From contig JANQOZ010000106.1 of assembly GCA_028285525.1 (NCBI GenBank), positions 18,822 to 82,821 of the forward strand: a DNA stretch of 64,000 nt, read 5' to 3'. A model generated the notes under the pieces. The model made no database searches. It was not told where the DNA came from and was given only the letters and a program-made list of their open reading frames with translations. The stretch is from Lysobacterales bacterium (lineage in GTDB: Bacteria; Pseudomonadota; Gammaproteobacteria; Xanthomonadales; SZUA-38). Of the stretch, positions 19,299-41,847 are shown one piece after another (position 1 is the stretch's first letter; the number at the start of each line of letters is the position of its first letter). The position numbers were made by a program, and so were the translations under genes.

Positions 19299-20189
19299 AT
19301 GATGTTTTCTTTCAAACGCAGAAAGAAGCACCTTGAGCCAGCGCGATCGTCTTTCGATCTGTCTGCGTTTGTCTCTCCCACATCAAACTATGCTCAACCG
19401 GACTGGGCAAAAATATCTGCGTACCAGCAGCAAACTGATGAGGATCCAGTCCAGTTCTGGAATGCGGTAGCCCATGCCTGGACCCAGCGTGTCGCGTCTG
19501 ACACTCACAAGACATTGCAGTCTGAGAACTTTCTTCTGGTCTATCCAAAAACCGTCAGCAAACCCGGCATGCTCTTGGACTATTCCGAAGCAACGCGCCA
19601 AAGGATTCTGAGGCGACTGCCGGGAATCGCTCTGGACGAAGGCCACGGGATCTGGGTGATCTTCGTATTCGACAATGCGGACCTCTACGACCAGTACCAG
19701 GAAGCCGCCTACGGCAGGGCATCTGCCATCCCCAGCTCCGGGCTGTTCGTCAATGATGGCTATGGGCACTTCCTGTTTCCTTACCTCGACCAGGGATTCA
19801 GTGAGGGCGTGGTCGCGCATGAACTCACACACGCCCTGATGAGCCACCTTCCCCAGGCACCGTTATGGGTACACGAGGGAGTAGCGGTAAACATGGAGCA
19901 CGACCTTGCCGGATCAGCCCCCCTGGAATATGACAAATTTCGACAGTCGCAGTGGACCAAGGCCACAATCAAGAAGCTTTTCAACGGCAAAGCATTCCAA
20001 GACGTAAAGTTGTCCGAACATGCTTACCTAACGGCGCGACTGCTCGTCATGAGCCTGGTCAAATTAGACTACAACCGCTTCACGGGATTTGTTCAGGAGG
20101 CGCGGCAGGAGGACGGCGGGTTTGCCGCAGCACGAAAATGGTTTGATGTCGATCTCAGCGAGATGGCTGACCATCTCGCCCATTCTTGA
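19299..20189 (+). CDS. Putative zinc metallopeptidase, peptidase-MA-like (HExxH...EG)
   Basis: 296 aa. VVAHELTHALMSHLPQAPLWVHEGVAVNME matches the HExxH plus downstream WxxEG pattern of MA-clan peptidase-like domains. No signal peptide. Confidence 0.55.
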   Translation: MMFSFKRRKKHLEPARSSFDLSAFVSPTSNYAQPDWAKISAYQQQTDEDPVQFWNAVAHAWTQRVASDTHKTLQSENFLLVYPKTVSKPGMLLDYSEATRQRILRRLPGIALDEGHGIWVIFVFDNADLYDQYQEAAYGRASAIPSSGLFVNDGYGHFLFPYLDQGFSEGVVAHELTHALMSHLPQAPLWVHEGVAVNMEHDLAGSAPLEYDKFRQSQWTKATIKKLFNGKAFQDVKLSEHAYLTARLLVMSLVKLDYNRFTGFVQEARQEDGGFAAARKWFDVDLSEMADHLAHS

Positions 20190-20586
20190 GTGCTCCCCGA
20201 CCATGCCGCTTACGAGTTTCGATGAATCCCACAGATCTTGTGCCCTAACTGCGAATTTTTGCGTAGTGGGTGACATCAGATCAGGGAACAGCAAGGCCGG
20301 CTTTCCAGTTATGCACTGATGTGTGCGGTAAGCGGTGATGGAACAAATACAGTGGCTTCTGCATCACGAATCGCGACAAGAATCTGTTCATCGGTAAATC
20401 AGCGTTTCGTCATTCGGTTTTCCTTGTTCAGTGGAGAGCCAAAATTGGTATTAGTCCACTCAGCTGAGAGCACTCCACGATCATTCAGATCATAGGAGCG
20501 GGGACGCTGAGAGATTCTTGTCCAGAACTGCACTTGTGAGATAGAGCCTGGGCAAACGTCACAAGTACTAACCTCTCGGCGAGGCG

Positions 20587-20633: not shown

Positions 20634-22097
20634 ATGACTAGTATCTTTAATGAGACTTTGGAATTCACCCAGGAACATGGTGCAAACATAGAATTGCTGG
20701 TTAATGGTGACGAGTTCTATGCTCGATATGAAAATTTAGACGGATACACCGTCGTTTATGACCGCGAGATGGGCCAGTTTTGTTTTGCTGAGCTATTCAA
20801 TGGCACTCTAATCTCGAGCCGCATCCCCGTTAGGCGAAGGCCTCCAAAACGAATTCGGAAACACTTAAGGGACTCTTCGCGGAGGCGAAACGCGATATTT
20901 GAGCGCCGATTTGATTTGCTCCAACCACCAGCCCGACCTGTCTCCCCCGCCCATACGCTGCAGACATTTGGTCCCGACAACGGTCTTTTGAACGGTCGGC
21001 GAGTGAGCCAAGGTCCAGTCCGAGGCTTAGTCGTCTTGGTGGAGTTTTCAGACTTCCACGTCAACGTCAGTAACCAGCAAGTCTCCGACATTCTTAATGC
21101 CCATGGATACGACTCCTACGGCAACTACTGTTCGGTGAGAGACTATTTCTCTGAAATGTCCGGTGGATTGCTCGACTATACCAACGAAGTCGTTGGGCCG
21201 ATTCGGCTGCCAAAGCCTCGTCAGTATTACGCAACAAATCCCATGTTTAAGACGGTACTAGACGAAGTTGCGGCTACTGGTATCGATCTCAGCAACTTTG
21301 ACTCCCGCGATGAAAACATTATTGATGCCATTTCTTTCATCTACGCTGGACGTACTCTTTATCAGGACTGGCTGTGGCCGCACAATCACATCCTGAACTG
21401 GGGCCACGGAGGCTACCGCGCGAACTTTTATCAGGTAAGTAGCCTGGGCGACGACGTTTCCACGATGAGTATTGGAACTTTTGCTCATGAAACCGGGCAC
21501 ATGCTTTGTCGATTTCCAGATCTCTATGACTACGGAAGCCGCGATGGCGATTTTGAGAAAAGCGCTGGCATGGGGCGATTTTGCTTAATGAGTTCGGGAA
21601 ATCACTTGGATGCTGGAAAAACGCCGGCTCCGATCTGCGCTTACCTTCGTGATCTGGCGGGGTGGTGCCGACGAAAAAAAATCAACCGTCGCGGTCAGTA
21701 CCATGCTGAGCATGGCAAATATAACGAAGTGCACTTTTTCGAGACCGATCGACTGAACGAGTATTTTTTGATTGAAAATCGCTCACAGCTAGGCCTGGAT
21801 ACCCACCTACCATCATCTGGTTTGGCTGTTTATCACTGCGATACGCTTGGTTCGAACGAATGGCAAGGCGGCACTGCCGAAAAACATTATCAATGCGGTC
21901 TACTTCAGGCTGACGGGCATCTCGATTTGGAACATAACGCAAACGTTGGCGACAGCGGTGATCTTTTCAGTGAGCGAACGGGAAGCTTTCTTGCCCGCAA
22001 CACCGCTCCGTCGTCCTTACTCTGGGATGGGTCAGATTCGGGATTGACTCTAAGAAACTGTTCGGCGCCAGGGCATTTGATGACCTTTGAAACATGA
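20634..22097 (+). CDS. M6-family (immune inhibitor A-like) metalloprotease domain protein, no signal peptide
   Basis: 487 aa. The zinc motif is in typical context (IGTFAHETGHMLCRFPDLYDY). Upstream VVLVEFSD and downstream YFLIENR / GLAVYHCD resemble the M6 domain core. Confidence 0.8.
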   Translation: MTSIFNETLEFTQEHGANIELLVNGDEFYARYENLDGYTVVYDREMGQFCFAELFNGTLISSRIPVRRRPPKRIRKHLRDSSRRRNAIFERRFDLLQPPARPVSPAHTLQTFGPDNGLLNGRRVSQGPVRGLVVLVEFSDFHVNVSNQQVSDILNAHGYDSYGNYCSVRDYFSEMSGGLLDYTNEVVGPIRLPKPRQYYATNPMFKTVLDEVAATGIDLSNFDSRDENIIDAISFIYAGRTLYQDWLWPHNHILNWGHGGYRANFYQVSSLGDDVSTMSIGTFAHETGHMLCRFPDLYDYGSRDGDFEKSAGMGRFCLMSSGNHLDAGKTPAPICAYLRDLAGWCRRKKINRRGQYHAEHGKYNEVHFFETDRLNEYFLIENRSQLGLDTHLPSSGLAVYHCDTLGSNEWQGGTAEKHYQCGLLQADGHLDLEHNANVGDSGDLFSERTGSFLARNTAPSSLLWDGSDSGLTLRNCSAPGHLMTFET

Positions 22098-22302
22098 TGT
22101 TTTCCTCTGATTCAATTCTCCAAGGTGTATTTGCGATGAACTGTGCGAAGAATTGGCTTCGAGATTGTATGAGAGGAATAGAGACGCGGTCGCACTTGAT
22201 TTGAAAATCAATAACGAAACCTGGTTGTCGCACCGGTAAAGTTCTTCAAGAACCGACCGTATCGAATCCGGTTTCGGTTCGGGAACAAAGGGGTTAAGTC
22301 AA

Positions 22303-23685
22303 ATGTCATTTTTGCTTCAAATGCCACCACTTGCAGATGATGGCCTGCCACAGCTATGTGGGTCACCTACTGACATAGACCCCCTGTTTCCCAACCTAAA
22401 TCCAGCCCCAACCCTCGACCATATTCTCTATCAAGATATTCGAGGCCATATGCTGAGCAGTCGCCATATCCCTCCTTCGGGCGATGAGACGTCCGCTATT
22501 GCCACATATCTGGGACAAATGATTGCTCACGAAATTGTTCCGAGTTCCACGCTGTTCCCTGATCTTGAGGTCGAGCGGACCATGAACCTGGGCAGCCTTT
22601 ACGGGCACTCGGGACCCCACAACCCTCGCCCACCTTTCGACGCTGCGGGGCGTTTCATCATCGGCAAGCTGCCTGGAGACCAGTTTTTGGGGTCAGATCT
22701 ACCACGTGATTGCTATACGGGGAGGGCCCTCATAGCGGATCCACGCAATGACGAGAACCACCTCGTATCTCAAATGCACACCACCTGGCTTCGTTTTCAT
22801 AACTGCCTGGTAGATCACGCAACGAACAATTCGAAGGCAAAGCCTTTTGAATACGCTAAAGAGATCACGATCAAGGCATTTCAATTTGTAGCAATAACGG
22901 ATTTTCTGTTTCAAGTCGTCGATCCAGCCGTGTACCGACGTTGCACAAGTACAGGGCCTCACATCCTAAACGGAGACAGCTTCGACCGTATCCCAGATTC
23001 GTTTGCCTTCGCTGGTTTCCGTTTTGGCCACAGCATGGTGCGAGACTCATACACTCTCAACCGTAGATATGGTCGACGACGTATTCACAAAATGCCGGAT
23101 CTTTTCGCTGCATTTCGGGATGAGCCTTTCACGGTCGAAGAAATCGTTGATTGGCACACTCTTGATCAACAACCGGCACATAAAATTGATTGCGGCATTG
23201 TCAACGCGATGAATAAACCCCCATTTGATGGATCGCAGGCTTCAATCGTTGAAATCAACTTAGCTCAAGGTCGACATCTTCCTGCGGGCTACGATTGTGC
23301 TTCGTTCATTGCAAACGACTACCCAGACCTTGCCTCAGATGCAGGGTTAACTCCGCTCAACCAAGACTCATTACGAACGGGTCGGCTGCATTCACTAAGG
23401 CTACATATAGAGACACTTCCTCTGTGGCTCTATGTGCTCCAGGAGGCGCGAGTCTCCAGATATGCGGGCGATCGACTTGGACCTTTGGGGGGAATCATCG
23501 TCGCCGAGGTTTTGTCTTCCTCGGTGAAAATGAGCCCTCACTCAATATCTCAACTGTTGCCCCAGTCTTTTGATAGCTGGCTCAACAGCCTGGGCTTGTT
23601 TGGAGAGTTTCTTGGGCGGAGCGCCCGGCCCCGAAGGTATGGGATCAAGTTTCTCGACGTTGTCGAATTCATACAGTCGCGTTAA
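22303..23685 (+). CDS. Animal-type haem peroxidase family protein (peroxidase-cyclooxygenase superfamily)
   Basis: Distal-His motif LGQMIAHEI, catalytic Arg/Asn block RNDENHLVSQMHTTWLRFHN, and proximal-His motif FAGFRFGHSMV. No signal peptide. Confidence 0.8.
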   Translation: MSFLLQMPPLADDGLPQLCGSPTDIDPLFPNLNPAPTLDHILYQDIRGHMLSSRHIPPSGDETSAIATYLGQMIAHEIVPSSTLFPDLEVERTMNLGSLYGHSGPHNPRPPFDAAGRFIIGKLPGDQFLGSDLPRDCYTGRALIADPRNDENHLVSQMHTTWLRFHNCLVDHATNNSKAKPFEYAKEITIKAFQFVAITDFLFQVVDPAVYRRCTSTGPHILNGDSFDRIPDSFAFAGFRFGHSMVRDSYTLNRRYGRRRIHKMPDLFAAFRDEPFTVEEIVDWHTLDQQPAHKIDCGIVNAMNKPPFDGSQASIVEINLAQGRHLPAGYDCASFIANDYPDLASDAGLTPLNQDSLRTGRLHSLRLHIETLPLWLYVLQEARVSRYAGDRLGPLGGIIVAEVLSSSVKMSPHSISQLLPQSFDSWLNSLGLFGEFLGRSARPRRYGIKFLDVVEFIQSR

Positions 23686-23704
23686 TCAAAAAAGGGAAAA
23701 TGAA

Positions 23705-24130
23705 ATGACCGATCCAGTCGATTTTCACAAATTCATATTGATTGGAACCGCCGGTGAGCCAACATTCGATGAAGTCGCGCTTGCGAGCTATCATCCACCA
23801 ACAAATGCTGCTGATCGAGTTGGATACACTACAGAATCACTGCTCGGCTCTGATGGAAACCATTGGTACGTGAAGCTTTTGCTCACGGGAAGTTGGCATC
23901 GTGAAGCAAAACGACTAACTTCAGACCTAAAATTTTTCATCGAAACTGAGGATCAGTTGCTCGCTACCAACGTCGATAACGAGGAAATTTTCGCTGATGG
24001 GTGGGAACTGACGGCGTATCGACTTCGTCTGCCGAGAACTGGCGATCCCGCGGGCACCGTCATGGTCGGAGAACTCACCTGGGAAAAGGGAACTCTTGTC
24101 AAAGTTACGAGTTGGTATTGGAAAGAATGA
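23705..24130 (+). CDS. Hypothetical 141-aa protein, operon partner of the CHAT protein
   Basis: The ATG at 23705 is preceded by aaggga. It starts 19 nt after the peroxidase stop and ends 4 nt before the CHAT ATG. No recognisable domain. Confidence 0.5.
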   Translation: MTDPVDFHKFILIGTAGEPTFDEVALASYHPPTNAADRVGYTTESLLGSDGNHWYVKLLLTGSWHREAKRLTSDLKFFIETEDQLLATNVDNEEIFADGWELTAYRLRLPRTGDPAGTVMVGELTWEKGTLVKVTSWYWKE

Positions 24131-24134
24131 AGCT

Positions 24135-27100
24135 ATGACGAGATCGCGTAACCCATTTGATCTCGCTAGAAATCGGCTAGGCCTGATAGGAGCTTTGGCG
24201 TTTCTTTTCGCCACGCCGTCGATTTTAGCTACTACGGTCTCTTCAGAAAGCTCAGGGATTTTCGTTGGACCTGGGGAAACGGATTCTGAGGAAACGATGG
24301 TGTTTGTATTACGCCCATCTCAACTCGCCGCAGAGGTACGCCTAGAGTTCCCCTCAGGGGGGTCGTTAGCTTTCCTACCTGCGATGATGCCCGGTGTGGC
24401 CGTGGCGGGTCCGGTCGCTGCAAGAAAAGCTTCAGATTGGCTGCTTGCGCCTGTCGGGAACCATGCCTCGATCCCGCACGATGTGGAGGTCGAAGTCTAT
24501 CGCAATAGTCAAGATGAACAGTTTGGTTCTTACAGCACTCTAAGCGAGGCTCTGAATCGATTGTACGAGGGTACCAGCTCGGGCGAGAGAGCCGCCCTGG
24601 AGCTTCTGCAGAATCGGCTCGATCACGGTGGGATTAAAACTGATAGTGATCGACATTTAGCCTATGCATTGGCGAAAGCATATGGAGATGCGGGTAAGCC
24701 AGAATTGGCAGCAGATTTGCTCAACTCTATCGAAGCGCGTTGGCCCGATTCAAATTTAACATTCATCCATTTGGCTGGCGTCGCACGCGCCCGGCAAGCT
24801 GCAGAGGAATATGCTGCCGTAATTGAGCTTCTATCGCCTACGGTGGCTAGATACTGCGCGGATCAGCAATTTGTGTCCGAGTATGAATTGGATTGCGCGA
24901 AGATCATGCTGATGCTTGCTGGCGCCAATCTGATGCATGCTTCCCGTGGTCAGCAAAAGGAGCTCGTGCACTTAGCCAATGAAAGCCTCGAAAAACTGCT
25001 TAAGACGACAACCCTTCGAAAATCGCGCACTTTGACTGCGGACACGTATTCTTTGTTGGCATTGGCGGCGCTAATTTCGGGTTCATTCTCGGAGGCCAAC
25101 ACCTATTACCAACTCGCAATGGTGGAGTTTAAAAGTAATCTGACAACGCACCTGGATCAAATCAGGTCGAATCGAGTAAATCGAGCTTCCGTCTTAAATC
25201 GGTTAGGAAAGGTGAGCGAGGCGCAAAGAATACTGAGGGAAGTGCTTGCTGACTCAAGCGAGCAAATGACTGCCGAGTCCCAACTCGGAATACTCTTTAA
25301 TCTTGCTCTCACATATGAAGAGACAGGCGACTGGATACAATCGTATCGATACTTCAAGCAATCTCACGATCTTGCTGAAAGGATCGGAGATCGGTTTTCA
25401 ACACATCTCTCGGGCTTTCGCGCTGCCAGTTCTCTCCGAGAGAGTGGCGATGCCACAGGTGCGCTAGCAATTCATACGAGTGCCCTGAAATTCTTTGAGA
25501 CTGAGTCACCCGAGCTTGCTAACCGTCTTCGCGTGGAAATCGCGCGAGACTATCTAGATCTAGGAGATCTACTTTCAGCGCAGAGAATGATTTCCGAGGC
25601 AATGAGCGTTTCAGATAAGATCGTTAGCACCAGATACCGGCTTGACGCGCTTGCGACTGCTACTGAAGTTGCCTGGCTTAGCGCGGATTTCGAAAAAATG
25701 GCTAGGTACGAACAAAAGTTTGACAGCGAGTTCCGGGAAGCAGATCTTTTACCCGGCGTGAAGATAGACCTCTATCTTCTGTTCCTGCGCCATTCGAAAG
25801 CCTTGGGCGATAAAGCGAAGGCATCAGAGTACGCTAAAGAAGCTCTGGACCTCATGGAATCGGTCCGTCGGCAATTTACGGCTCCAGCAATTCCAAAATC
25901 ATGGGCACACCGAACTCATGACCTTGTTTCGGAGAACCTACGTCGACTCTTCCATGTAACGTGTTCACATACAACCAGATGTCGTGAGGAAGCATTTGAA
26001 ATGCTTGAGCGACACGAAAATTATTGGGTTCGTGCTGGGCGTAGAACACGTCTCAATGAATCGCTCAGTGACGCCAACTCAGTCGAACCGGCGTTGCGGG
26101 CCTATAGAACGGCAGAGGCGAACCTCGTTGATGCTGCGAGAAAGCCTGAGCAACTCGCGGTTGCGATGGAACAATTAGATCTCGCCCGAGAGCGCTATTT
26201 GGATTCGCGCTCAAACTTAGCTTTGCCTGAAGAAATAACGACTCTGACCTTCGACGAAATCCAGGCTTCGCTCCAGCCAGATACACTGGTCATTCGATTT
26301 CATTACGATGATTCGACGGAAACAATTACTGCATTTGCCGTGGGCGCAACGCAATTTCAGTCTCATGAGCTTTCGGCGCCAGATCTCCCCAGGCTATTGA
26401 ATCAATTCGCCCTGGACCGAGGTGCAGATTCCCATGTTGCTGGACAACTCTACACTACTCTATTTGGCAATCTTGGCAGCGTTAATTGGGTTGAGATTGA
26501 CAGGCTGGTGTTTGTGCTACCCGCGCTGATGGCCTCAACGCCCCTGGCTGCGTTGCCAATCCCTGGTTCACAGGAACATCTTGCGACAAGGTTTCAGATC
26601 ATTCAGACCCCATCGGTCTCTGATTTCCTTAACGAAAGGGTTCAACCTACCCCTAGTGCCAACGTCGCGGATATCGCGATATTCGCTGATCCTATTTTTG
26701 GCGAGATGATAGCAGCACAAACCGAAACCGAAGCATTCCGTAGCTGGAGTCAGAACCTCAAACGTTTGCCGTTTACTGCTCGTGAGGCTGAGTCAATTCA
26801 GAGGCGTTTCACCAATCGAAACGTAGTTTTAGCGGCCCGACGTGCCGCGACCGCAAATAATCTGCTATCTGAACCCTTTCGAAACGCGAGTGTCCTTCAC
26901 ATTGCGACCCACGGCTATTTTTCGGAAAAGACACCGGATGTAGTCGGATTAGCGGTGAGCCCTTCAAACGAAGTTGGCGACCGCGGTTTTGTGTCGCTAT
27001 CGCAATTTCTGGCAAAAGATATTAAGTCTCGCCTCGTTATTATCAGCGGATGTGAAACTGCACTGGGCAAACAGTACAACGGCGCTGGTCTGGAGAGTCT

Positions 27101-27347
27101 TACCAGCGGGTTGCTTTCCCGAGGTGCTGGATCTGTGATCGGAACTCTTTGGCCGGTAGATGATCGGGGAACGGCAACCTTTATGTCCCACTTCTACGCG
27201 GGTCTAGATCTCCATGACGGTAATGGAGCAATGGCTCTGCGGTCAGCTCAACGAGCCATGGTCGATTCTCGGAGATATCGCCACCCGAAGTATTGGTCGG
27301 GTTTCGTCATGGTGGCTTCGAACCAAAGCTATACCAGAGTACTCTAA
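24135..27347 (+). CDS. Exported or membrane-anchored TPR-repeat CHAT-domain (caspase-like) protease
   Basis: The ATG at 24135 gives MTRSRNPFDLARNRLGLIGALAFLFATPSILA (signal/anchor). About 700 aa of TPR-like helical repeats follow. The C-terminal CHAT core has the His/Cys dyad (VLHIATHGYF ... RLVIISGCETALG ... GAGSVIGTLWPVDD). Confidence 0.9.
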   Translation: MTRSRNPFDLARNRLGLIGALAFLFATPSILATTVSSESSGIFVGPGETDSEETMVFVLRPSQLAAEVRLEFPSGGSLAFLPAMMPGVAVAGPVAARKASDWLLAPVGNHASIPHDVEVEVYRNSQDEQFGSYSTLSEALNRLYEGTSSGERAALELLQNRLDHGGIKTDSDRHLAYALAKAYGDAGKPELAADLLNSIEARWPDSNLTFIHLAGVARARQAAEEYAAVIELLSPTVARYCADQQFVSEYELDCAKIMLMLAGANLMHASRGQQKELVHLANESLEKLLKTTTLRKSRTLTADTYSLLALAALISGSFSEANTYYQLAMVEFKSNLTTHLDQIRSNRVNRASVLNRLGKVSEAQRILREVLADSSEQMTAESQLGILFNLALTYEETGDWIQSYRYFKQSHDLAERIGDRFSTHLSGFRAASSLRESGDATGALAIHTSALKFFETESPELANRLRVEIARDYLDLGDLLSAQRMISEAMSVSDKIVSTRYRLDALATATEVAWLSADFEKMARYEQKFDSEFREADLLPGVKIDLYLLFLRHSKALGDKAKASEYAKEALDLMESVRRQFTAPAIPKSWAHRTHDLVSENLRRLFHVTCSHTTRCREEAFEMLERHENYWVRAGRRTRLNESLSDANSVEPALRAYRTAEANLVDAARKPEQLAVAMEQLDLARERYLDSRSNLALPEEITTLTFDEIQASLQPDTLVIRFHYDDSTETITAFAVGATQFQSHELSAPDLPRLLNQFALDRGADSHVAGQLYTTLFGNLGSVNWVEIDRLVFVLPALMASTPLAALPIPGSQEHLATRFQIIQTPSVSDFLNERVQPTPSANVADIAIFADPIFGEMIAAQTETEAFRSWSQNLKRLPFTAREAESIQRRFTNRNVVLAARRAATANNLLSEPFRNASVLHIATHGYFSEKTPDVVGLAVSPSNEVGDRGFVSLSQFLAKDIKSRLVIISGCETALGKQYNGAGLESLTSGLLSRGAGSVIGTLWPVDDRGTATFMSHFYAGLDLHDGNGAMALRSAQRAMVDSRRYRHPKYWSGFVMVASNQSYTRVL

Positions 27348-27362
27348 GGCCTGAAGTGTCAC

Positions 27363-28058
27363 CTATTCTGCCACGACCGAGTAAGAAACAGTCGGCGTTG
27401 ATTCCTCAGCAGTGAATACCTCGATCACTAAATCGCCCGTCGGAAGGAAACCAGAGGGGATATAGATTTTCACCTCACCATTGTCGGATTTCAGTCCCGA
27501 AAGTTCTCCTACTGCTTCGCCGTCCGGTTGAGTTATGACTAGGCGATATGAGTCGTTTGCGTTCACAGGTACGCTGGCGTAAACGAGCGAATGTTCACTA
27601 GCAGAAACCCGAGTGGGTTGGATTTCTCCCGAACGCATAGTCTCTAGGTATACCAGGTCTACTTTGTCAGAGATTGCACGCGAGGCTTCGAGCATTGCTT
27701 GGAGCTGTTGATTCTCCCGGCTAGCTGAAACCAATAGAGTTCCCAATCCTACAATGGCCGCTGCCGCGGCAGCCGCAGCAAGTAACGAGCCTGTTAGCCA
27801 CTTGCTCGGATCCGTCTTTCTTGGTGATGGCCCAGGAGCGAAACCCGTCTCGGCGGCTAAGTAATGATCAAGGGCTAGATCTGCGCTCAGATCAAACAAC
27901 AAATCGGGGTGCTCTGCCAGCCAAAGCTCAAACTCTTCCACTTCACGAGTGCTCAGTTGGTTGGCTTGGTATTTCCTAGCGAGACTTTCATCCAGGCCGT
28001 CAAGCGCGAGACGTTCCTGGATTTCTGAGTAAGCCTCGGTTTGGGTTTTCGCCGTCAT
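27363..28058 (-). CDS. Single-pass anti-sigma factor (no zinc-finger cysteines)
   Basis: There is a 4-nt ATGA overlap with the upstream ECF sigma gene. The N-terminal cytoplasmic helix region is LARKYQANQLSTREVEEFELWLAEHPDL, with one TM helix (LLAAAAAAAAIVGLGTLLV) and a ~130-aa extracytoplasmic domain. Confidence 0.65.
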   Translation of the reverse strand: MTAKTQTEAYSEIQERLALDGLDESLARKYQANQLSTREVEEFELWLAEHPDLLFDLSADLALDHYLAAETGFAPGPSPRKTDPSKWLTGSLLAAAAAAAAIVGLGTLLVSASRENQQLQAMLEASRAISDKVDLVYLETMRSGEIQPTRVSASEHSLVYASVPVNANDSYRLVITQPDGEAVGELSGLKSDNGEVKIYIPSGFLPTGDLVIEVFTAEESTPTVSYSVVAE

Positions 28059-28648
28059 TCTCTTCGGCCGTCTAAGTGTTTCTTCGTAAACAACTCGCGA
28101 AGCCTACCTTTTGCCCGGAATAGCACCCGATCAAAAAGACCAGAGTCTAGGTTGAGGTCCCGGCAAATTTCGCCTTTCTCCGCACCTAGAACAAAGTACC
28201 GCCGCAGAATATCTCGGTCTCTCGGTACTGTTAGATCGTCTATGCATTGTTTTGCACACTCGATTAGATCTATCCACTCCGTTTTGGCAGCTACATTTTC
28301 AGGCGAAGCCTCTAGTTCTGCTAACACCTGCGGATCGGATAGGAGTTGCTTGTTTTCACGAGTCATAAACCTTGCGGCCATTCGAAGACCCGTCCGCCGA
28401 AGGTAACCAAGAACTCTATCTGGGTTCTCGACCTTTGCGTCTTGAAGGCTCGTGATTGTCACAACTAGCGCCTCCTGTGCAATGTCTTCAACCCATGACG
28501 ACTCGACGTATCGCTTTCGTATGATGAAAACCAGCCAGCGATAGTACTTCTCATAAAATTGACTCTCCGCATCCTTGTCTCCCTCCATGATTCTCCGGGC
28601 CAATTCTCCGGCCGCGGAGCCTCGGGATGGCTCCGACTCGTCCCCCAC
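28055..28648 (-). CDS. ECF (sigma-70 family, group 4) RNA polymerase sigma factor
   Basis: 197 aa with a GTG start. Region 2 (FYEKYYRWLVFIIRKRY...EDIAQEALV) and region 4 (ILRRYFVLGAEKGEICRDLNL...RAKGRL) are both recognisable. Confidence 0.85.
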   Translation of the reverse strand: MGDESEPSRGSAAGELARRIMEGDKDAESQFYEKYYRWLVFIIRKRYVESSWVEDIAQEALVVTITSLQDAKVENPDRVLGYLRRTGLRMAARFMTRENKQLLSDPQVLAELEASPENVAAKTEWIDLIECAKQCIDDLTVPRDRDILRRYFVLGAEKGEICRDLNLDSGLFDRVLFRAKGRLRELFTKKHLDGRRE

Positions 28649-28796
28649 GTCGACTCCTGATTGCTGAACTCATGCGCTACGATCGATTGGTGTCCAGTTA
28701 TACCACTCGCGCGGCTATGGTTCTAAGCGGCGCTGAATTTCCGTTTTTTGGCGCCGATCAGGATTTATTCCTAGTAGATAAGTGCCTTGAGAATTC

Positions 28797-28820
28797 GAAA
28801 CCTATCACCGGCATGTCGTA
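28797..28820 (+). promoter_or_regulatory. Candidate ECF-type promoter (GAAAC-N15-CGTA) upstream of the second ECF sigma gene
   Basis: GAAAC at 28797-28801 and CGTA at 28817-28820, in the divergent region between the two ECF sigma genes. This is a pattern match only. Confidence 0.25.
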
Positions 28821-29029
28821 AAACTTGCCTATGCTTTCTTAATTGGATGCGAGCTTTCCCAAGTCCTGTTCACTACTAACGTATGTCAAGGCTACTGATC
28901 CATAGGGTCTGTCGGCAATTTCTGCGCTTTGCCGTAGGAATCTTCAGAAATTCATCAGATTTCTTGCCGCGACAAAAAAGTCCCTACGGTTCACTGTGCT
29001 TTTCCCACACGACGCCCCGGAAAAGCACC

Positions 29030-29653
29030 ATGGAATGCGTAGCAGAGGTCCCTGCGATCCACCGACGAAAAGAGCCGATCCGCAGTAATCTGGCCGAACA
29101 TTTTCTACGTGCCCGGCACGGCGACCAGCAGGCAGAGTCTGCTTTGGTTAATCACCTCTACCCACGGGTGACACGATTCGTCCGGGCTCAGACCCGAAAC
29201 ACGGAGCTTGTTGAGGGGGTGGTTCAGGACACCTTCCTGGTATTCCTAAAAAAAATTCGTGCCGGCGCGCCGGCAGACCCGGCCAAGATCGAAAGCTATG
29301 CGTTCGGGATCGCCCGATTCACCCTAATCGCCCGCTGTCGACTGCTGGCCCGCCTTTCAGAAACGGAGATCTCCGAAGAAATCTCCTGTGACAACGAAGG
29401 AGATTCACCCCTGGATATCGTCCTAGCCGAAGAGGTGTACGCCTGGGTTGAAAAAGCGATCGATCGGCTATCCAAAGAAAGAGACCGACAGTTGATGAGG
29501 CACTACATCGCCGAAGAGTTGGGCACCTCAGATTTGTGTGATTTGATAAAGGTAAGCCGAGACCATCTATACCGCGTGCTGTGGCGTGCAAAGAAGCGCC
29601 TGGGTGAAATCCTCAAGGAAAGCGCCAGGACGCACGAACTGCTTGAATCGTAA
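29030..29653 (+). CDS. ECF sigma factor (second, divergent copy)
   Basis: Region 2 (LVNHLYPRVTRFVRAQT...EGVVQDTFLVFLKK) and region 4 (RQLMRHYIAEELGTSDLCDLIKVSRDHLYRVLWRAKKRL) are present. The ATG at 29030 gives a typical 207 aa. The track ORF starts at ATG 28883, which remains an alternative. Confidence 0.8.
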   Translation: MECVAEVPAIHRRKEPIRSNLAEHFLRARHGDQQAESALVNHLYPRVTRFVRAQTRNTELVEGVVQDTFLVFLKKIRAGAPADPAKIESYAFGIARFTLIARCRLLARLSETEISEEISCDNEGDSPLDIVLAEEVYAWVEKAIDRLSKERDRQLMRHYIAEELGTSDLCDLIKVSRDHLYRVLWRAKKRLGEILKESARTHELLES

Positions 29654-29682
29654 CCCAATGACCCAGGGGCAAGTGAGAGGAA

Positions 29683-31905
29683 ATGGCCAAACGCAAAAAG
29701 ATCGCCATCGTCGGAGGTGGTCCTGCCGGGCTTAGCGCCGCGTTTCATTTGACGCAGGTTAAGGACTGGGATGCGCAATATGACATTACGGTCTATCAGC
29801 CGGGTTGGCGGCTGGGCGGTAAAGGCGCTACCGGCCGGGGTGAGGATACCCATTGGCGCGTTGAAGAACACGGGGTGCATGGCTTTTGCCGTTTTTACTT
29901 CAACACCTGGGGCATGATCAAGGAGGTGTATGAAAAGCTGGACCCGTCACACTACCCTAAGTTGATGTCCACTGAATTGCCGGATGCGTTTCTTCCAACC
30001 TCCTTCAGTTACCCTATCTCCAACGCCGATGAGCTTTATAAGCCGGAGCCGTCGGCGCTGCCGCGACATACCGGGAAGCCATGGTGCACGCCGCTGGCTC
30101 CGCTTCCTGAGCCGATTACGCTGCTCGAGAAACTGCTCCGATCGATAACTCATCGTCAAAATCTCAACGACGCCCTCGCATCCTTCAACCGGGATCTGCA
30201 AGAAATTTACACGTCCAGCTTTCAGCGAATCCTTAATACGCCGAATCGAGTCAAGCTGATGATCGCCATTCATCGTGCCAAAGCCGCGGTGGAGCGCCTA
30301 AGCGAGCGTGAGCATGTCACGGATGCAATCCGCGATACGCTGATCAAGCGATTCAAATCCGTTCAGAAGTACACCCATCAGGAAATCAAGAACCATGAGA
30401 ACGACCAACGGGGCTTCAGCTACCGGCTGACTATCCTGGATATCTTCACTGCGACCATCATTGGGGTTCTTAAAGAGGGGTATCTGACCGAACCGGAGGC
30501 TGAACTCGATCATATTGACGACTTGCGCGCGGACGTGTGGCTGCGGATGCATGGCGCCCATGCCTCGTCGATGAACTCACCGGCTTTTGTTGCAGTGCCG
30601 AATATTCTTTTCTCCTCGCCCAGCGGCAACGACAACCGTTATCCTGAGTTATCCGCTGCGTCGTGGCTGGGTTGGCTGCTTCGCGCGCTGACAGGCGACG
30701 GCGACTATTACTACTTTTTCCAGGCCGGAACTGGCGAATCGGTGATGCTGCCCCTCTATCTTCATCTGGTGGATCAAGGGGTGAAGTTCGAGTTTTTCCA
30801 TAAGCTTCGATCAGTCACTACGGCAACCAACGGCCGCGGTGACCGCAGAATCCATACCCTGCTATTCGATCAACAAGCGCAGCCAACGGACGGCGAGTAC
30901 TACCCTCTGATCAACATGGACTGGGAGAAAGAACCTGGTGCGCCAACCACAAAAGAGGTCTGGCCTAACGAACCGCGCTGGGATCAACTTGTAGACGGCA
31001 CTCAGTTGAAAGACAGCGGGGTCGACTTCGAAGCCTGGGAAAGCCCCTCATCGCCGAAGCCGGGTAAGGTGACATTAACCGAAGGGTCGGAGTTCGATTT
31101 TGTCGTGATGGCGATCCCGCCGTCCGTATTTCCTCTGGTGGGACTGGATTTCGGCGCGTGGCAAATCGCGAACGAACGTCTCTCGACGACCGCAACCCAC
31201 GCCGCCCAGGTCTGGTTTACGAAGAGCACTGCAGAGATGGGCTGGTCATTTGATCCGGACCTGGAACTCCCGCACACCAGCCGGTACGCATCACCCACGT
31301 TTCCGGCGCCGCTCAGTGCCATGGTGGCTTTCGATGATCTGATCCAGTACGAAGGCTGGCCCAAAGATGATCCGCCGGAAGGGCTCCTTTACGCCTGTGG
31401 GCCAATCCAAACCGACAAGAAGGCCACTGAGCCGGAGAAACTCATCCGCACCCAAACCCACGCTGAAAGCATCGTGCGAGTGCTGGGCAATTTTCTTAAG
31501 GACGGTCGACTGGATATCGAAGCGCGCCATGACGCCATGACGCTGGATTTTGAACTAATCTACGATCGGGAAGGTCGCGAAGGCCCGCAACGGATGGGAT
31601 ACCAGTTCTACAAAGTGAACGACGACCCGATGGAGGCCTATGTGCAAGCGCCCCCGCGCAGTGCTTCCGGTCGAATGCACGCTTGGGAAACCGGGTTAAC
31701 CAATACGGTCGCCGCCGGGGACTGGATCTATACCGGCATCAATGTCGGCGCCTTTGAGAGCGCGGTGACTGGCGGAAAGCTCGCCGCTTTCGCGCTAACC
31801 GGTGAGCCACATATCGACGAGATCAAGGGTTTCGACTTTCTCCACGCCGGCGCCCGCCGCAAGGCGAACAAGGCACAAGCTGACGGCCTCATTCCGCTCA
31901 TCTAG
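29683..31905 (+). CDS. Large FAD/NAD(P)-binding oxidoreductase (amine-oxidase / COG3349-like)
   Basis: 740 aa. N-terminal dinucleotide fold KKIAIVGGGPAGLSAAFHL...VYQPGWRLGGKG and C-terminal flavin motif AAGDWIYTGINVGAFESAVTGG. It starts 29 nt after the ECF sigma stop. Confidence 0.8.
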   Translation: MAKRKKIAIVGGGPAGLSAAFHLTQVKDWDAQYDITVYQPGWRLGGKGATGRGEDTHWRVEEHGVHGFCRFYFNTWGMIKEVYEKLDPSHYPKLMSTELPDAFLPTSFSYPISNADELYKPEPSALPRHTGKPWCTPLAPLPEPITLLEKLLRSITHRQNLNDALASFNRDLQEIYTSSFQRILNTPNRVKLMIAIHRAKAAVERLSEREHVTDAIRDTLIKRFKSVQKYTHQEIKNHENDQRGFSYRLTILDIFTATIIGVLKEGYLTEPEAELDHIDDLRADVWLRMHGAHASSMNSPAFVAVPNILFSSPSGNDNRYPELSAASWLGWLLRALTGDGDYYYFFQAGTGESVMLPLYLHLVDQGVKFEFFHKLRSVTTATNGRGDRRIHTLLFDQQAQPTDGEYYPLINMDWEKEPGAPTTKEVWPNEPRWDQLVDGTQLKDSGVDFEAWESPSSPKPGKVTLTEGSEFDFVVMAIPPSVFPLVGLDFGAWQIANERLSTTATHAAQVWFTKSTAEMGWSFDPDLELPHTSRYASPTFPAPLSAMVAFDDLIQYEGWPKDDPPEGLLYACGPIQTDKKATEPEKLIRTQTHAESIVRVLGNFLKDGRLDIEARHDAMTLDFELIYDREGREGPQRMGYQFYKVNDDPMEAYVQAPPRSASGRMHAWETGLTNTVAAGDWIYTGINVGAFESAVTGGKLAAFALTGEPHIDEIKGFDFLHAGARRKANKAQADGLIPLI

Positions 31906-31917
31906 GTTCGGCGGTCG

Positions 31918-34900
31918 ATGACTCAAGAATCCCTCCTAGCCTGCGTGATGTCAGTTCGTCTTCAGGGGTCCGGGGGGGCGCCGAATGAGTTGGAGAGCCT
32001 CGAACGCGTGGTTGCTGGCCGCGGTGGGCGAGTCATCCAAATCGACAGCCAGAGCTTCTTCGGCATCTTGCGAAGCGCAAGTGTCACGATCCAGGTCAGC
32101 GTAGCGCTGGCCCGATTTGCGGCCCAGATGGATCAAACCCAAATCCAAATCGGCATCTGTGCCGGCTCTATCTTCCTGGCCGGTAAGCAGTGCACGGGTC
32201 AGGCCACTGTGGAGGCCTCGCTGCTCAGAGACGCTGCCTCACAGGAGACACCGATCTTGTTGTCGCGCGAGGTCCGCCGGTTTTTGCTCTCCGAAGAATC
32301 GGTTCCTGAACTAAGAAAGCAGGAAAGCGGCCACTATGCCGTGAACTGGAAGGAAACCGCGACAGAATTCAGCTTACCGTTGTTCCTGGTCCCTGGTGAT
32401 CAGCCCATGGTGGGTCGCACCGCAGAACTTCGAGCTCTCAAGCTTTGCGTTTCGCCGCCCCAGGACCAGCCCATGCTGGTCACCGTTGTCGGCGAAGCGG
32501 GGATTGGTAAAACTCGTCTTCTGTCGGAGTTTGCGTTGTTTGCAGCCAACCAGGGTGCCCGAGTATTAGGAGGGCAGGAACACGAAGGGCTTGGTCAACC
32601 GTACGCGAGTTTTCACGATTGTCTCTCACTTTGGCTAAACCAAGTCGACCATGTGGCCCTGCAGTCTCTCGCTTCGGTCGCGCAGCTTGAAAAGATTGTC
32701 CCGGAGATCTCGGAGAGGCTCTACGGCTTAAAAAGCACCGAGGTCGAAAGCGCAGAAACAGAGAAACAGCGTTTGTTTGATGCGTTGGTTGAGTGGCTAG
32801 GGCACCTGGCCGCCGCTCAGCCCACCGTACTGATCTTGGACTCGCTTCATTGGGCCAGCGACAGCACGCTAAAACTCATCGAAGGTGTCATTGCGAACCT
32901 TGATCAAGCGCCGGTCACCATCGTGCTGGCCTCCCGAGAGGAAGATCCGCGAATCAAGCCGCTCACATCACTCGCCGCCGATCAATGGGGCTTGTCCCAG
33001 GTTAAGGAGATTTCTCTGGGAACGCTCACTCGCGACGACATCCGCGTCTTTTATGGCAATACTCTGTCGGACGAGCTCGCTGACTTTATACATGTCACAA
33101 CTCAGGGACGGCCGCTGCATCTGGTCAACCTGATGGATTTTGTTTCCAAAGGAATCGATCTGCCAGAGTCTTTGGAAACAGCCCTGCAGGCGCGTTTCGA
33201 GGAGTTGCCGGCTGCTGCTACGTCCGTTCTGCAAGCGTGTGCGGTATGCGGCCCCCGCTTTACGGCCCGCGTGATCGCTGATGTAAACCGGGATCCTTTG
33301 GATGTGTTTGAGGCGCTGGATCGCGCGACTGAGCTCGGGCTGATCAAGCTGGTCGATTCCGTCAAGCTCAAGTATCAGTTCGCCCACTCTCTGATACGAG
33401 CACATCTCCTGAAGGGTGTCGGTGCAGCCAGACTGGCTCATTTACACGCGCGAGCCGCCGAGGCTTTTCAGCTGCCTCAGAATCGCGAGCTGGCTTCTCC
33501 TGCAGACTTGGCGAGGCTTTATGCCGGTGCTATCTCCCTGGGCTACGTTGCTGAGGCTGCAATGTGGGCAGCGCTGGCTGCCGACGCTGCGCTGAACCAA
33601 CATGCGAACGAAGAAGCGCGCGACATGTATGAGTCTGCCTTAGGTCTTCAGCCCGACCAAAACACCTCCGCGGCTTGCCGCCTCAAGTTGGGTTTAGGCA
33701 TCGCGCTCGCAAGAATCGGAGATACTCGCAGCGACGAAGTTCTGTGGCAAACGGCTGATTTGGCGGAATCGCTTGGCGATGGTGTATTGATGGCGCGCGC
33801 GATGCTGTCGACCTATCGCTTGACGTTCTCCCGCGGTCGAGACGTTGAATTGGAGGCCGTAGAACGCCTGAAAAGGGCTTTGGCCATGCTGCCGGCTGAA
33901 GAAACTGCCTTGGCTACAAGGGTAACGGCGCTGCTAGCCGTTGAGCTCACTTGGTTGGATGACCGCAATCAGGCGGTGGAGACCTCCCAAAGAGCGCTGG
34001 AACTGGCTCGATCAGAATCTTCCGAAATTCTCGCCGAAGTCCAGTCCCGTCGGCTCTGGGTGTTTTTCCACCCCATCGAGCAGCGTCTGAAAGAAAATGT
34101 AGATCTGCTGAAGCTTGTGGCCAAGGCCAAAGACCCGGTGCTTCAGTTTGAGGCTGCCGGCCATGGCGTGTTCACCGCGGTGCGGATCGGTCAACGCGCC
34201 ATGCTCGACCAGAACATGGAATCGATGCGCGCGTCCGCCCGGGTGGTCAACGATCCAAGCGTAAGGAGCATGTGGTATCTGCGCGAATCGGCCGTCGCAT
34301 TGCTTGAAGCACGCTACACCGACAGCTTGACTTACGCTCAACGGCGATTGGAGCTCACCAAACGGACTGGTCAACGTGAGGGAAAGAACGCTTTTCGTAT
34401 TCAAACCTTCTGGGTTGCCTACGAAACGGTCGATAAGGCCGATATGTTGTTTGCCTTGGAGAAGCTGCTGGCCATATTGCCTGGCAGTCCGCTAGAGGAA
34501 TACGCCATCGCTGCGCATGTTGCCGCAGATTGCCAGGAATCGGCGTTGGTCCAGCCGCTGCTTGAACGGTTTGCCAGCTTTGAGTTTGCTCACGACCAGA
34601 CCTTCCTGTGGTTGAACTGCCTGCTGGTGGAGCCGGCAATTGCTGTATGCGACCAGGGCCTGATTGATCGACTCACCTTCAACCTGTCTGATCACCACAG
34701 CGAACATGCCAACACGGTGTTTACTTACCTTGGGCCAGTTGCCCGTTACCTGGGTTTGCTGGAACAGCATCGCGGGAACAATAGCTCAGCGGAGACCTTG
34801 TTCCGTCAATCCGCCCGGTCGGCCCAGGACCTTAAGTCGAAATTTTGGGCCAGCAAGAGCAAACTCAATCTGGCGGCGGTATCCGAGAAAGACTGTGAGT

Positions 34901-34989
34901 CGCTAACGACTGAAGTGGCTGCTCAATCCTCGCAATATGGATGGAAACGATTGCTAAGCCAGTCTCACCAGTTGGCGGCGAAAGTCTAA
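31918..34989 (+). CDS. Degenerate cyclase-homology domain - AAA_16/STAND P-loop NTPase - TPR-like superhelix protein
   Basis: 1023 aa. The N-terminal ~140 aa follow the class III cyclase layout (…GGRVIQIDSQSFFGIL…QIGICAGSIFLAG…GQATVEASLLRDAASQETPILLS) but lack the first metal-binding Asp. Walker A is VVGEAGIGKTRLLSEF and Walker B is VLILDSLHWA. A long helical-repeat C-terminus follows. Confidence 0.8.
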   Translation: MTQESLLACVMSVRLQGSGGAPNELESLERVVAGRGGRVIQIDSQSFFGILRSASVTIQVSVALARFAAQMDQTQIQIGICAGSIFLAGKQCTGQATVEASLLRDAASQETPILLSREVRRFLLSEESVPELRKQESGHYAVNWKETATEFSLPLFLVPGDQPMVGRTAELRALKLCVSPPQDQPMLVTVVGEAGIGKTRLLSEFALFAANQGARVLGGQEHEGLGQPYASFHDCLSLWLNQVDHVALQSLASVAQLEKIVPEISERLYGLKSTEVESAETEKQRLFDALVEWLGHLAAAQPTVLILDSLHWASDSTLKLIEGVIANLDQAPVTIVLASREEDPRIKPLTSLAADQWGLSQVKEISLGTLTRDDIRVFYGNTLSDELADFIHVTTQGRPLHLVNLMDFVSKGIDLPESLETALQARFEELPAAATSVLQACAVCGPRFTARVIADVNRDPLDVFEALDRATELGLIKLVDSVKLKYQFAHSLIRAHLLKGVGAARLAHLHARAAEAFQLPQNRELASPADLARLYAGAISLGYVAEAAMWAALAADAALNQHANEEARDMYESALGLQPDQNTSAACRLKLGLGIALARIGDTRSDEVLWQTADLAESLGDGVLMARAMLSTYRLTFSRGRDVELEAVERLKRALAMLPAEETALATRVTALLAVELTWLDDRNQAVETSQRALELARSESSEILAEVQSRRLWVFFHPIEQRLKENVDLLKLVAKAKDPVLQFEAAGHGVFTAVRIGQRAMLDQNMESMRASARVVNDPSVRSMWYLRESAVALLEARYTDSLTYAQRRLELTKRTGQREGKNAFRIQTFWVAYETVDKADMLFALEKLLAILPGSPLEEYAIAAHVAADCQESALVQPLLERFASFEFAHDQTFLWLNCLLVEPAIAVCDQGLIDRLTFNLSDHHSEHANTVFTYLGPVARYLGLLEQHRGNNSSAETLFRQSARSAQDLKSKFWASKSKLNLAAVSEKDCESLTTEVAAQSSQYGWKRLLSQSHQLAAKV

Positions 34990-35753: not shown

Positions 35754-36145
35754 TCAGAAGGTCAAGTATCTGAGGCGCACAAGCACAGACATTCCGATCA
35801 TGATTTTCACGATCTGGCCCCTGTTCTTTGCATTCTTCTTTCGAAAGCCAACCCATGGCTTTTGCGTCATGGCTTGCTGGACATTTAACAAATGACGCGC
35901 TACCCAACGCGCCATCGCCACCCCTCAAAACAAGAGGTTTTACTTATCACGTCGGAAATTTTTCTTCAAGGCTGAGCCAGCTGAATCATGGGCATTCACT
36001 ATGTGCCATTGGATCTCTCAATCTCTCACCTGACGCATGGGCGCAGCCATTGCTCTTCGGCTCTTAGAAATTATTTGTCGATACAGGTGATAGGAAACCC
36101 GTTGGTATGCCACCTATTTGAACAAAACGAACAATCAGGAGCGGC

Positions 36146-41685: not shown

Positions 41686-41847
41686 CTTGTTTTCTCATAA
41701 GTCTTGGCTTGGATGAGAAGTGCGGTTTCCGACTCCAATCTCTCAGGCTCGAATGAACCGTCTGCAAGCCAAGTGACGAAACTGGCAGGGGTTCTCCGAT
41801 CGGGTCAATCGGTCCTCTTTTTCCGCTGACCGTCTGGTGCTTCTAGC

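Follow-up and report, generated by a model that had tools for sequence, protein, structure and literature searches.

A conserved five-gene cassette of an ECF sigma factor, its anti-sigma factor, a haem peroxidase, a small protein and a Sec-exported TPR-CHAT protein

In a 64,000-nucleotide stretch of DNA from a Lysobacterales bacterium (contig JANQOZ010000106.1 of GenBank assembly GCA_028285525.1; the whole stretch is referred to below as the window) we have identified a cassette of five genes, which encode a sigma factor of the extracytoplasmic function (ECF) type, a single-pass anti-sigma factor, an animal-type haem peroxidase, a small protein of 141 residues and a Sec-exported protein that joins tetratricopeptide repeats (TPR) to a CHAT domain. 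Comparison of about 160 related loci shows strict co-conservation of these genes: the set is present in 25 or more genomes or contigs and occurs in three gene orders. A previous reading of the window from its letters alone (the sequence-only reading) had described six genes here, with a gene for an M6-type protease at the head of a four-gene operon. Five of the six cluster far above chance: the CHAT, peroxidase and small genes and the ECF pair are kept together in all three gene orders, which supports a functional link among them, and the M6 gene is not part of this association.

The map of open reading frames (ORFs) reproduces exactly the coordinates and sequence features that had been reported for all six genes:

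20634-22097, plus strand: M6-family metalloprotease, 487 residues, with HETGH and without a signal peptide
22303-23685, plus strand: animal-type haem peroxidase (PF03098), 460 residues, without a signal peptide
23705-24130, plus strand: small protein, 141 residues, 4 nt before the CHAT ATG
24135-27347, plus strand: predicted TPR-CHAT caspase-like protease (PF12770 and TPR_12), 1070 residues
27363-28058, minus strand: anti-sigma factor, 231 residues, Cys-free and single-pass, with its stop 15 nt past the CHAT stop
28055-28648, minus strand: ECF sigma factor, 197 residues, with a GTG start and an ATGA overlap with the anti-sigma gene

The HETGH motif of the M6 protease, the distal His, Arg and proximal His motifs of the peroxidase and the His/Cys dyad of the CHAT protein are each intact, and the spacing of the small ORF before CHAT, of the ECF pair beyond the CHAT stop and of the ATGA overlap is as had been described. 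The M6 protease matches TIGR03296 at 158.9 bits (cutoff 110.8) and falls marginally below the cutoff of the Pfam M6 family PF05547 (21.7 against 22). The sigma factor matches TIGR02937 at 52.1 bits (cutoff 42.9) over residues 26-185 of 197 and Sigma70_r2 (PF04542) at 24 bits, against a cutoff of 24; it is paired with its cognate single-pass anti-sigma factor by the ATGA overlap, and the pair is kept in 22 loci.

Conservation in three gene orders

Two surveys were made, one scanning one genome per species with a peroxidase profile (80 loci) and the other scanning metagenome contigs with a profile of the CHAT domain (80 loci); they are anchored on the peroxidase and on CHAT, so that a sigma/anti-sigma pair occurring elsewhere would escape them. 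In the peroxidase survey the sigma, anti-sigma and CHAT genes adjoin only the eight peroxidases, out of 80, that are nearest to that of the window, and the hosts of these eight are Neptunicella, Aliiglaciecola, Aestuariibacter, Paraglaciecola, Kangiella, a gammaproteobacterial metagenome-assembled genome (MAG), Steroidobacter and Peristeroidobacter. The remaining peroxidase loci, about 70 in number, have no cassette genes, and all that was found there is, in L010 and L064, an upstream gene for an unrelated CHAT protein. The CHAT survey returned 19 matches at 37% identity or more, of which 17 are informative, and cassette genes adjoin every one of the 17; among the 61 matches at 32% identity or less, none has an adjacent peroxidase save L112, a rearranged fragment. 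The higher-identity CHATs always adjoin the peroxidase or sigma genes of the cassette and, L112 again excepted, those of lower identity do not. By these comparisons CHAT and peroxidase each form a cassette-specific clade.

The first gene order runs sigma, anti-sigma, peroxidase, small, CHAT, and the second peroxidase, small, CHAT, sigma, anti-sigma; in the third, which is that of the window, the peroxidase, small and CHAT genes converge on the anti-sigma and sigma genes. The nearest homologue of the window's peroxidase (59% identity) comes from a Pseudomonadota MAG (L001), the layout of which is that of the window apart from the M6 position, where genes for an S8 peptidase and a 738-residue protein stand in place of M6. 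A different peptidase family has thus been recruited beside the cassette in that genome. In Neptunicella sp. (L003) all five genes are co-directional and tightly spaced; the peroxidase is 35% identical to that of the window, identity across all five proteins lies between 24 and 35%, and the other four compare with their window counterparts as follows:

Sigma factor: 28% identity, E 4e-29
Anti-sigma factor: 24% identity, E 9e-10
Small ORF: 24% identity, E 2e-06
CHAT: 30% identity, E 6e-77

When the flanking ORFs of 24 cassettes were clustered, no sixth conserved gene was found, and the window's genes for a FAD oxidoreductase, a second sigma factor, a STAND protein, a Trans_reg_C protein and the M6 protease are not conserved with the cassette. 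Searches of plasmids returned only non-cassette peroxidases (about 30% identity) and no anti-sigma factor, so that no cassette copy was seen on a plasmid. Apparent frameshifts split the peroxidase gene in L065 (9923-11277; Paraglaciecola aquimarina) and L086 (2073-3446) and the CHAT gene in L101 (6377-9604); either sequencing error or, in some lineages, a decaying cassette would account for this.

Features of the cassette proteins

The CHAT protein matches PF12770 at 182.4 bits (cutoff 24), with profile positions 3-287 of 289 covered, and is made up of a signal peptide, an N-terminal beta-rich region, a TPR array and a C-terminal CHAT domain. The dyad residues H926 (LHIATHGYF) and C973 (ISGCET), the possible degeneration of which in homologues had been raised by the sequence-only reading, are invariant in nine cassette CHATs, and the protein is predicted to be a caspase-like protease of clan CD with an intact dyad. 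Signal peptides were assigned by inspection, and a Sec signal peptide was found in every CHAT of the clade (at least 25 members; for example MRRSFSALLLCISLLSGVAGA, followed by ADC); since all members carry one, we place the CHAT protein outside the cytoplasm. Sequence and profile searches of the PDB with CHAT returned TPR proteins and, weakly, the TPR-CHATs of craspase (E 3e-3), and did not retrieve DdvA, the Myxococcus xanthus protein considered below.

The anti-sigma factor has an N-terminus like an anti-sigma domain (ASD), one transmembrane helix (residues ~87-110) and an ectodomain, rich in beta structure, of some 120 residues. Its homologues adjoin the sigma gene in 22 cassettes and are about 20% identical among themselves, with Y30, L35 and E44 invariant in all 22 and E39 and F43 in 21. 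The N-terminus resembles class-I anti-sigma domains in which the zinc ligands have been replaced (RYL..LT.EE.E.FE.Y...PELL). The protein is not of the zinc-binding anti-sigma (ZAS) type, defined by HxxxCxxC: it contains no Cys and has LAEHPDLL at the aligned position. The model NF052375 matches it at 23 bits, below that model's cutoff, and PDB searches gave no match for the sigma factor and two non-significant ones for the anti-sigma factor (E 0.24 and 0.58). Comparison of its ectodomain with the N-terminal region of CHAT by hhalign revealed no similarity. A single ectodomain residue, R142, is invariant among the 22 anti-sigma factors; it lies about 30 residues past the membrane helix, the next residue is always Ser or Gly, and this R142-S/G pair is a candidate site for cleavage by CHAT.

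The peroxidase matches PF03098 at 49.1 bits (cutoff 25) and belongs to the bacterial peroxidase-cyclooxygenase superfamily (annotated as 'haem peroxidase family protein'), with which it shares the fold family and the distal Gln/His, catalytic Arg and proximal His; all 17 cassette peroxidases keep these residues (Q72, H76, R148 and H243) unchanged. In the mammalian enzymes of this type an Asp/Glu pair ester-links the haem. The Asp of GQxxDHD is replaced by Ala, Ser or Thr in all 17 cassette enzymes and is present in 58 of 71 others, while the Glu position of the pair is Glu in 11 of the 17. In a neighbour-joining tree one bipartition splits the 17 full-length cassette peroxidases from 72 others. 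Inspection found no signal peptide on the peroxidase or the small protein of any clade member, and both are therefore placed in the cytoplasm. Compared with other bacterial members of PF03098, then, the cassette enzymes are a distinct clade that always lacks the GQxxDHD Asp, is short (about 420-490 residues) and is cytoplasmic, and the tie to an ECF/CHAT cassette is unique to them, the 72 other members being without such neighbours.

The 141-residue protein has no match in Pfam, NCBIfam or PADLOC. It represents a very rare family, with nine or ten relatives in profile searches of 5.8 and 1.84 billion proteins; the exhaustive profile search of the 1.84 billion gave about ten cluster representatives, all of them stand-alone proteins, and no viral relatives were found. 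Structure prediction, which the sequence-only reading had proposed for this protein, proved informative: AlphaFold 2 with a 15-sequence alignment yields an antiparallel barrel with short helices at a predicted local distance difference test (pLDDT) score of 92.4 and a predicted template modelling (pTM) score of 0.86, the nine-sequence alignment having given an unusable pLDDT of 53. The best PDB matches are siderocalin/lipocalin-2 and fatty-acid-binding proteins, with template modelling scores of 0.4-0.5 and none at E <= 1e-3, and the protein is accordingly described as a predicted calycin-like barrel without a close solved relative. W64, W126 and W139 are invariant in the family. A different type of small ORF (about 130-175 residues; YYPP...ARF.V.GD...W-I-C) stands between peroxidase and CHAT in L090, L091, L092, L093, L098 and L102. 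No homology to the window family could be detected for those of L090, L091, L092, L098 and L102 (hhalign probability 0.5%), so that this type represents either extreme divergence or non-orthologous replacement.

A promoter-like motif and a low-GC island

Among 24 upstream regions searched for spaced dyads, eight contain TGAGA-N16/17-ACAG, against five at most in shuffled sequences, and the aligned sites share the fixed architecture TGA(G/A/T)A(G/C)(G/A)-N15-(A/G/C)CA(G/C). In L090, L091 and L097 it is the sigma gene that has the motif upstream, in L017, L021, L094 and L098 the peroxidase, and in the window and L001 both, so that one or other gene carries it in five lineages (the window's and four others). 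The strict form TGADAGG-N15-SCAC has three matches in the window where 0.18 would be expected, a number that none of 100 shuffles reached, and they lie upstream of the peroxidase (22170), of the sigma gene (28807, minus strand) and of a GNAT gene (36088). The relaxed motif has seven matches (2.1 expected) and adds sites at the M6, Trans_reg_C and Sel1 genes. When the window was scored with a position weight matrix built from non-window sites, the Sel1 site ranked first, Trans_reg_C second, M6 third, the peroxidase fourth and sigma seventh; all five are intergenic and correctly oriented, and the top four lie inside the low-GC island described below. The sites in the window are:

20508..20533, plus strand: TGAGAGA-N15-GCAC, 100 nt upstream of the M6 ATG
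22170..22195, plus strand: TGAGAGG-N15-GCAC, 107 nt upstream of the peroxidase ATG; putative ECF promoter of the peroxidase-small-CHAT operon
28782..28807, minus strand: TGATAGG-N15-GCAC, upstream of the sigma/anti-sigma operon; putative autoregulation, with an equivalent site at the L001 sigma gene
36003..36028, minus strand: motif upstream of the Trans_reg_C gene (34986-35753, minus strand)
36088..36113, plus strand: strict motif, 32 nt upstream of the GNAT/FeeM-like gene at 36146
41720..41745, minus strand: motif 34 nt upstream of the Sel1-repeat gene (39589-41685, minus strand)

Because the motif precedes the sigma gene, the peroxidase operon, the M6 gene and three other genes of the island, a single sigma regulon is suggested. 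The cassette sigma factor is probably the one that uses these promoters, and the regulon may be an autoregulated one that takes in the peroxidase-small-CHAT operon together with, in this lineage, several genes of the island, M6 among them. Another candidate, GAAC-N15-GGTA(A/T)A, was considered as a promoter shared by peroxidase and sigma genes and was rejected when an exact search placed it upstream of the sigma gene only. Ungapped k-mer enrichment of the upstream regions gave no excess over shuffles, and consensus scans for sigma-70 promoters and terminators were uninformative. In L001 the same motif occurs at 5175-5200 (plus strand) upstream of the genes for the S8 peptidase and the 738-residue protein, that is, at the position of M6; this site falls within a called 146-residue lipoprotein-like ORF, which makes its assignment uncertain.

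Between positions 19000 and 42000 the GC content of the window is about 0.50 (0.49-0.57), against about 0.62 in the flanks (0.60-0.66), a feature absent from the sequence-only reading. This island lies directly after an ATP synthase operon and a beta-lactamase-family gene, with downstream core genes on its other side. As the cassette and its putative regulon lie wholly inside the island, horizontal acquisition is suggested. The L001 locus has a transposase (rve) gene at its edge, which is about 9 kb from the cassette on the upstream side.

Several further genes accompany the cassette. Its neighbours over 28883-35753 include a second ECF sigma factor (28883-29653; 256 residues, with an N-terminal extension of about 70 residues), a 740-residue FAD/NAD-binding oxidoreductase, which is unique to the window, a 1023-residue AAA_16/STAND ATPase whose best NCBIfam match is a TOMM kinase/cyclase region, and the Trans_reg_C (ToxR/CadC-like) regulator, the gene for which is convergent. 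The second sigma factor, the STAND protein and the Trans_reg_C regulator are common only to the window and its close relative L001. The GNAT operon (from 36146) encodes a GNAT/FeeM-like N-acyl amino acid synthase, an iron-containing redox enzyme of the Haem_oxygenas_2 family and a 611-residue unknown protein, and the Sel1-repeat protein is of 698 residues; the GNAT and Sel1 genes are each preceded by TGA(G/T)AG-N15-(G/C)CAC. Just upstream of M6, a 296-residue ORF (19299-20189) has no Pfam match and a weak, sub-threshold match to the model of the HExxH flagellinolysin (E 5.8e-3). M6-like proteins (E ~1e-12 to that of the window) are also encoded on two sediment metagenome contigs (L117, 535-2610; L118, 3391-5571), 2.5-5.4 kb from TPR-CHAT genes of another CHAT subfamily, a proximity that may be due to chance or to a second M6-CHAT association.

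A model for control of the sigma factor and its relation to known systems

We infer a chain of events in which a periplasmic TPR-CHAT sensor, acting as site-1 protease, brings about release of the sigma factor, with the peroxidase and the barrel protein as output; for the chain as a whole we would claim only slightly less than an even chance. According to this model the single-pass anti-sigma factor would hold the sigma factor at the inner membrane, and the TPR-CHAT protein, once exported to the periplasm, would sense a protein or peptide cue through its TPR array. Its His/Cys site would then cut the anti-sigma ectodomain in trans, with the cut predicted to fall after Arg142 (R-S/G), and this would constitute the site-1 step of regulated intramembrane proteolysis. 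Taken by itself, cleavage of the anti-sigma factor by CHAT is a tentative proposal, which we place appreciably below even. The freed sigma factor would transcribe from TGAGAG-N15-GCAC promoters both its own operon, giving positive feedback, and the peroxidase-small-CHAT operon, while further targets in this genome would be the M6 protease, the GNAT operon, the ToxR-like regulator and the Sel1 protein. The cytoplasmic peroxidase and the calycin-like barrel would be the conserved output; most plausibly, and this is a guess, they are a peroxide- or oxidant-handling enzyme and a ligand-binding or carrier subunit.

The mechanism is proposed because the CHAT protein appears to be periplasmic and the peroxidase and barrel cytoplasmic, because the CHAT clade is strictly paired with this anti-sigma family, because the juxtamembrane Arg-Ser/Gly is invariant, and because there are precedents for its parts. 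Cleavage after Arg is known from relatives in clan CD, separase and metacaspases among them. The specificity of separase is also cited in the literature on DdvA (PMC11506125). DdvA of M. xanthus is a transmembrane anti-sigma factor, the periplasmic domain of which is itself a TPR-CHAT; it has been suggested, and not demonstrated, that DdvA cleaves itself in the manner of a site-1 protease and that RseP then acts. DdvA/DdvS controls CBASS and CRISPR defence (PMC11506125). In type III-E CRISPR systems the TPR-CHAT protein Csx29 cleaves Csx30, which binds and inhibits an ECF-like sigma factor, CASP-sigma (PMC10028731). Two of the contigs with lower-identity CHATs, in addition, carry independent sigma/anti-sigma/TPR-CHAT triads without a peroxidase. 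In that of L131 (876-4751) the anti-sigma factor is a transmembrane protein whose ectodomain is TPR-like, and the exported CHAT carries a C-terminal transmembrane segment; that of L122 (213-4487) has a ZAS-type (HxxxCxxC) anti-sigma factor and a CHAT without a signal peptide, so that coupling of ECF sigma factors to TPR-CHAT proteins may be a broader theme. The sequence-only reading had offered two interpretations, and the first, in which an extracytoplasmic CHAT acts on the anti-sigma factor, is the better supported of the two because of the Sec signal on every CHAT, the invariant Arg in R-[S/G] and the peroxidase-less triads; the mechanism is no novelty in kind, as DdvA/DdvS and the Csx29-Csx30-CASP-sigma system already tie TPR-CHAT proteases to inhibitors of ECF sigma factors.

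A number of observations weigh against this model. Contact between CHAT and the anti-sigma factor is proposed from sequence comparison and from precedents, and among the precedents the protease role of DdvA is itself unproven (PMC11506125). Arg142 opens an apparently folded beta domain and may be structural. Shuffled sequences give maxima whose range takes in the individual weight-matrix scores, in 11 Alteromonadales-type loci neither this motif nor any shared bipartite motif was found, and the second ECF sigma factor of the island (28883-29653) could in principle use the motif. In gene order 1 CHAT is downstream in the sigma factor's own operon and could equally be an output, a cytoplasmic peroxidase as the output of a periplasmic sensor is without explanation, and in about a third of lineages the homology of the small ORF is beyond recognition.

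The main rival, which we regard as unlikely while it remains the strongest of the alternatives, is a conventional ECF stress regulon in which the ectodomain itself or a housekeeping site-1 protease senses the cue and the exported CHAT is an output, a periplasmic protease directed at damaged or foreign proteins rather than at the anti-sigma factor. Such a regulon would account for CHAT being the last gene of the sigma factor's own operon in gene order 1 and for the motif that precedes the peroxidase-small-CHAT operon in the window; it is consistent, too, with the fact that some 120 residues of the anti-sigma factor make up a conserved ectodomain of its own, and with other proteases (M6 in the window, S8 in L001) that are apparently under the same motif. 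However, the CHAT clade and the anti-sigma family are found together wherever the contig allowed, DdvA physically fuses an anti-sigma factor to a TPR-CHAT, and the independent triads share no other cargo, as is expected if CHAT belongs to the signalling apparatus.

We consider it improbable that the cassette is a conflict, defence or death module, the second interpretation of the sequence-only reading. Here the periplasmic TPR-CHAT would detect an invader protein and trigger the sigma factor, oxidants from the peroxidase would arrest or kill the cell, and the barrel protein would be the partner, inhibitor or substrate carrier of the peroxidase. An envelope-triggered immune or suicide system of this kind, with a haem (halo)peroxidase and its calycin-like partner as the oxidative killing effector, is an equally doubtful prospect; if true, it would be a bacterial analogue of the caspase-triggered oxidative burst. 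The role of DdvA/DdvS in control of CBASS and CRISPR speaks for a defence function, as do the fact that Craspase is an immune system, the low-GC island with its adjoining STAND/AAA_16 ATPase, the transposase near the cassette in L001, and a distribution that is patchy and rare. However, this interpretation gained no positive support: a scan with PADLOC-DB v2 detected no system, giving only weak single matches at E >= 2e-4 (BovA at E 2.5e-4 on CHAT, and PDC-S27 and mad8 on the neighbouring STAND protein), and no defence genes are conserved beside the cassette in 24 loci. Nor was the cassette found in phage-like or plasmid records; a sigma-dependent feedback design is typical of stress responses, and toxicity of the peroxidase is without support.

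That M6, peroxidase, small ORF and CHAT form one proteolytic and oxidative operon on which the ECF pair converges by chance, as the sequence-only reading had it, is very improbable, and the comparative data largely refute it: all four genes run in one direction and M6 shares the promoter-like motif, but no M6 homologue adjoins any other of about 25 cassettes, a gap of 205 bp with a separate copy of the motif divides M6 from the peroxidase, and the ECF pair is kept in every gene order, fully co-directional ones included. M6 lies outside the conserved cassette and is probably a lineage-specific member of the regulon, with its own copy of the motif.

The arrangement in which CHAT would control the anti-sigma factor can be set beside three known systems. 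As in RseA/DegS/RseP, a single-pass anti-sigma factor is co-transcribed with a sigma factor that is autoregulated, putatively so in the cassette. DegS cuts RseA at a distance from the membrane similar to the 30 or so residues that separate R142 from its helix. The site-1 protease would, however, be a cassette-encoded cysteine protease of clan CD rather than a housekeeping serine protease, and the cassette has no RseB-like partner. With Craspase the cassette would share the principle that a TPR-CHAT protease disables by proteolysis what inhibits an ECF-type sigma factor, and that this sigma factor then drives locus-linked promoters. Craspase, in contrast, is cytoplasmic and guided by RNA through Cas7-11, and its inhibitor Csx30 is soluble and unrelated to the cassette anti-sigma factor; Cas7-11, Csx30 and Csx31 are absent here, and the Csx29 model NF041237 reaches 15.7 bits where its cutoff is 300.

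Resemblance to DdvA/DdvS lies in an ECF sigma factor under a single-pass anti-sigma factor, in a periplasmic TPR-CHAT with an intact His/Cys dyad, and in the proposed logic by which CHAT serves as site-1 protease ahead of RseP. The two differ in that DdvA is one fused polypeptide whereas the anti-sigma and TPR-CHAT proteins are encoded by separate genes in all of the at least 25 cassettes, so that cleavage would occur in trans. The cassette anti-sigma factor, unlike DdvA, lacks the zinc-binding CHCC (it is Cys-free) and has a small beta ectodomain of its own, and no sequence similarity to DdvA was detectable in PDB searches. The cargo is a peroxidase and a barrel in the one case and CBASS/CRISPR in the other, and the hosts are Gammaproteobacteria and Myxococcota, respectively. 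The main text of the ECF classification paper describes no CHAT- or peroxidase-linked group, and the searched literature holds no precedent for the short cytoplasmic clade of animal-type haem peroxidases and the calycin-like family as cassette components. Both families gain a regulatory context here, an initial clue to what the short cytoplasmic haem peroxidases of bacteria do. The site-1 idea could not be tested in DdvA, which unites protease and substrate in a single chain and for which no signal is known; the cassette splits protease and substrate and makes the idea testable in trans, with a predicted scissile site (R142-S/G), a predicted promoter for a reporter and cultured hosts (Neptunicella, Paraglaciecola, Aliiglaciecola and Steroidobacter). 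The cassette is best filed as a split, two-gene version of a known theme, that of an ECF sigma factor under the control of a TPR-CHAT protein.

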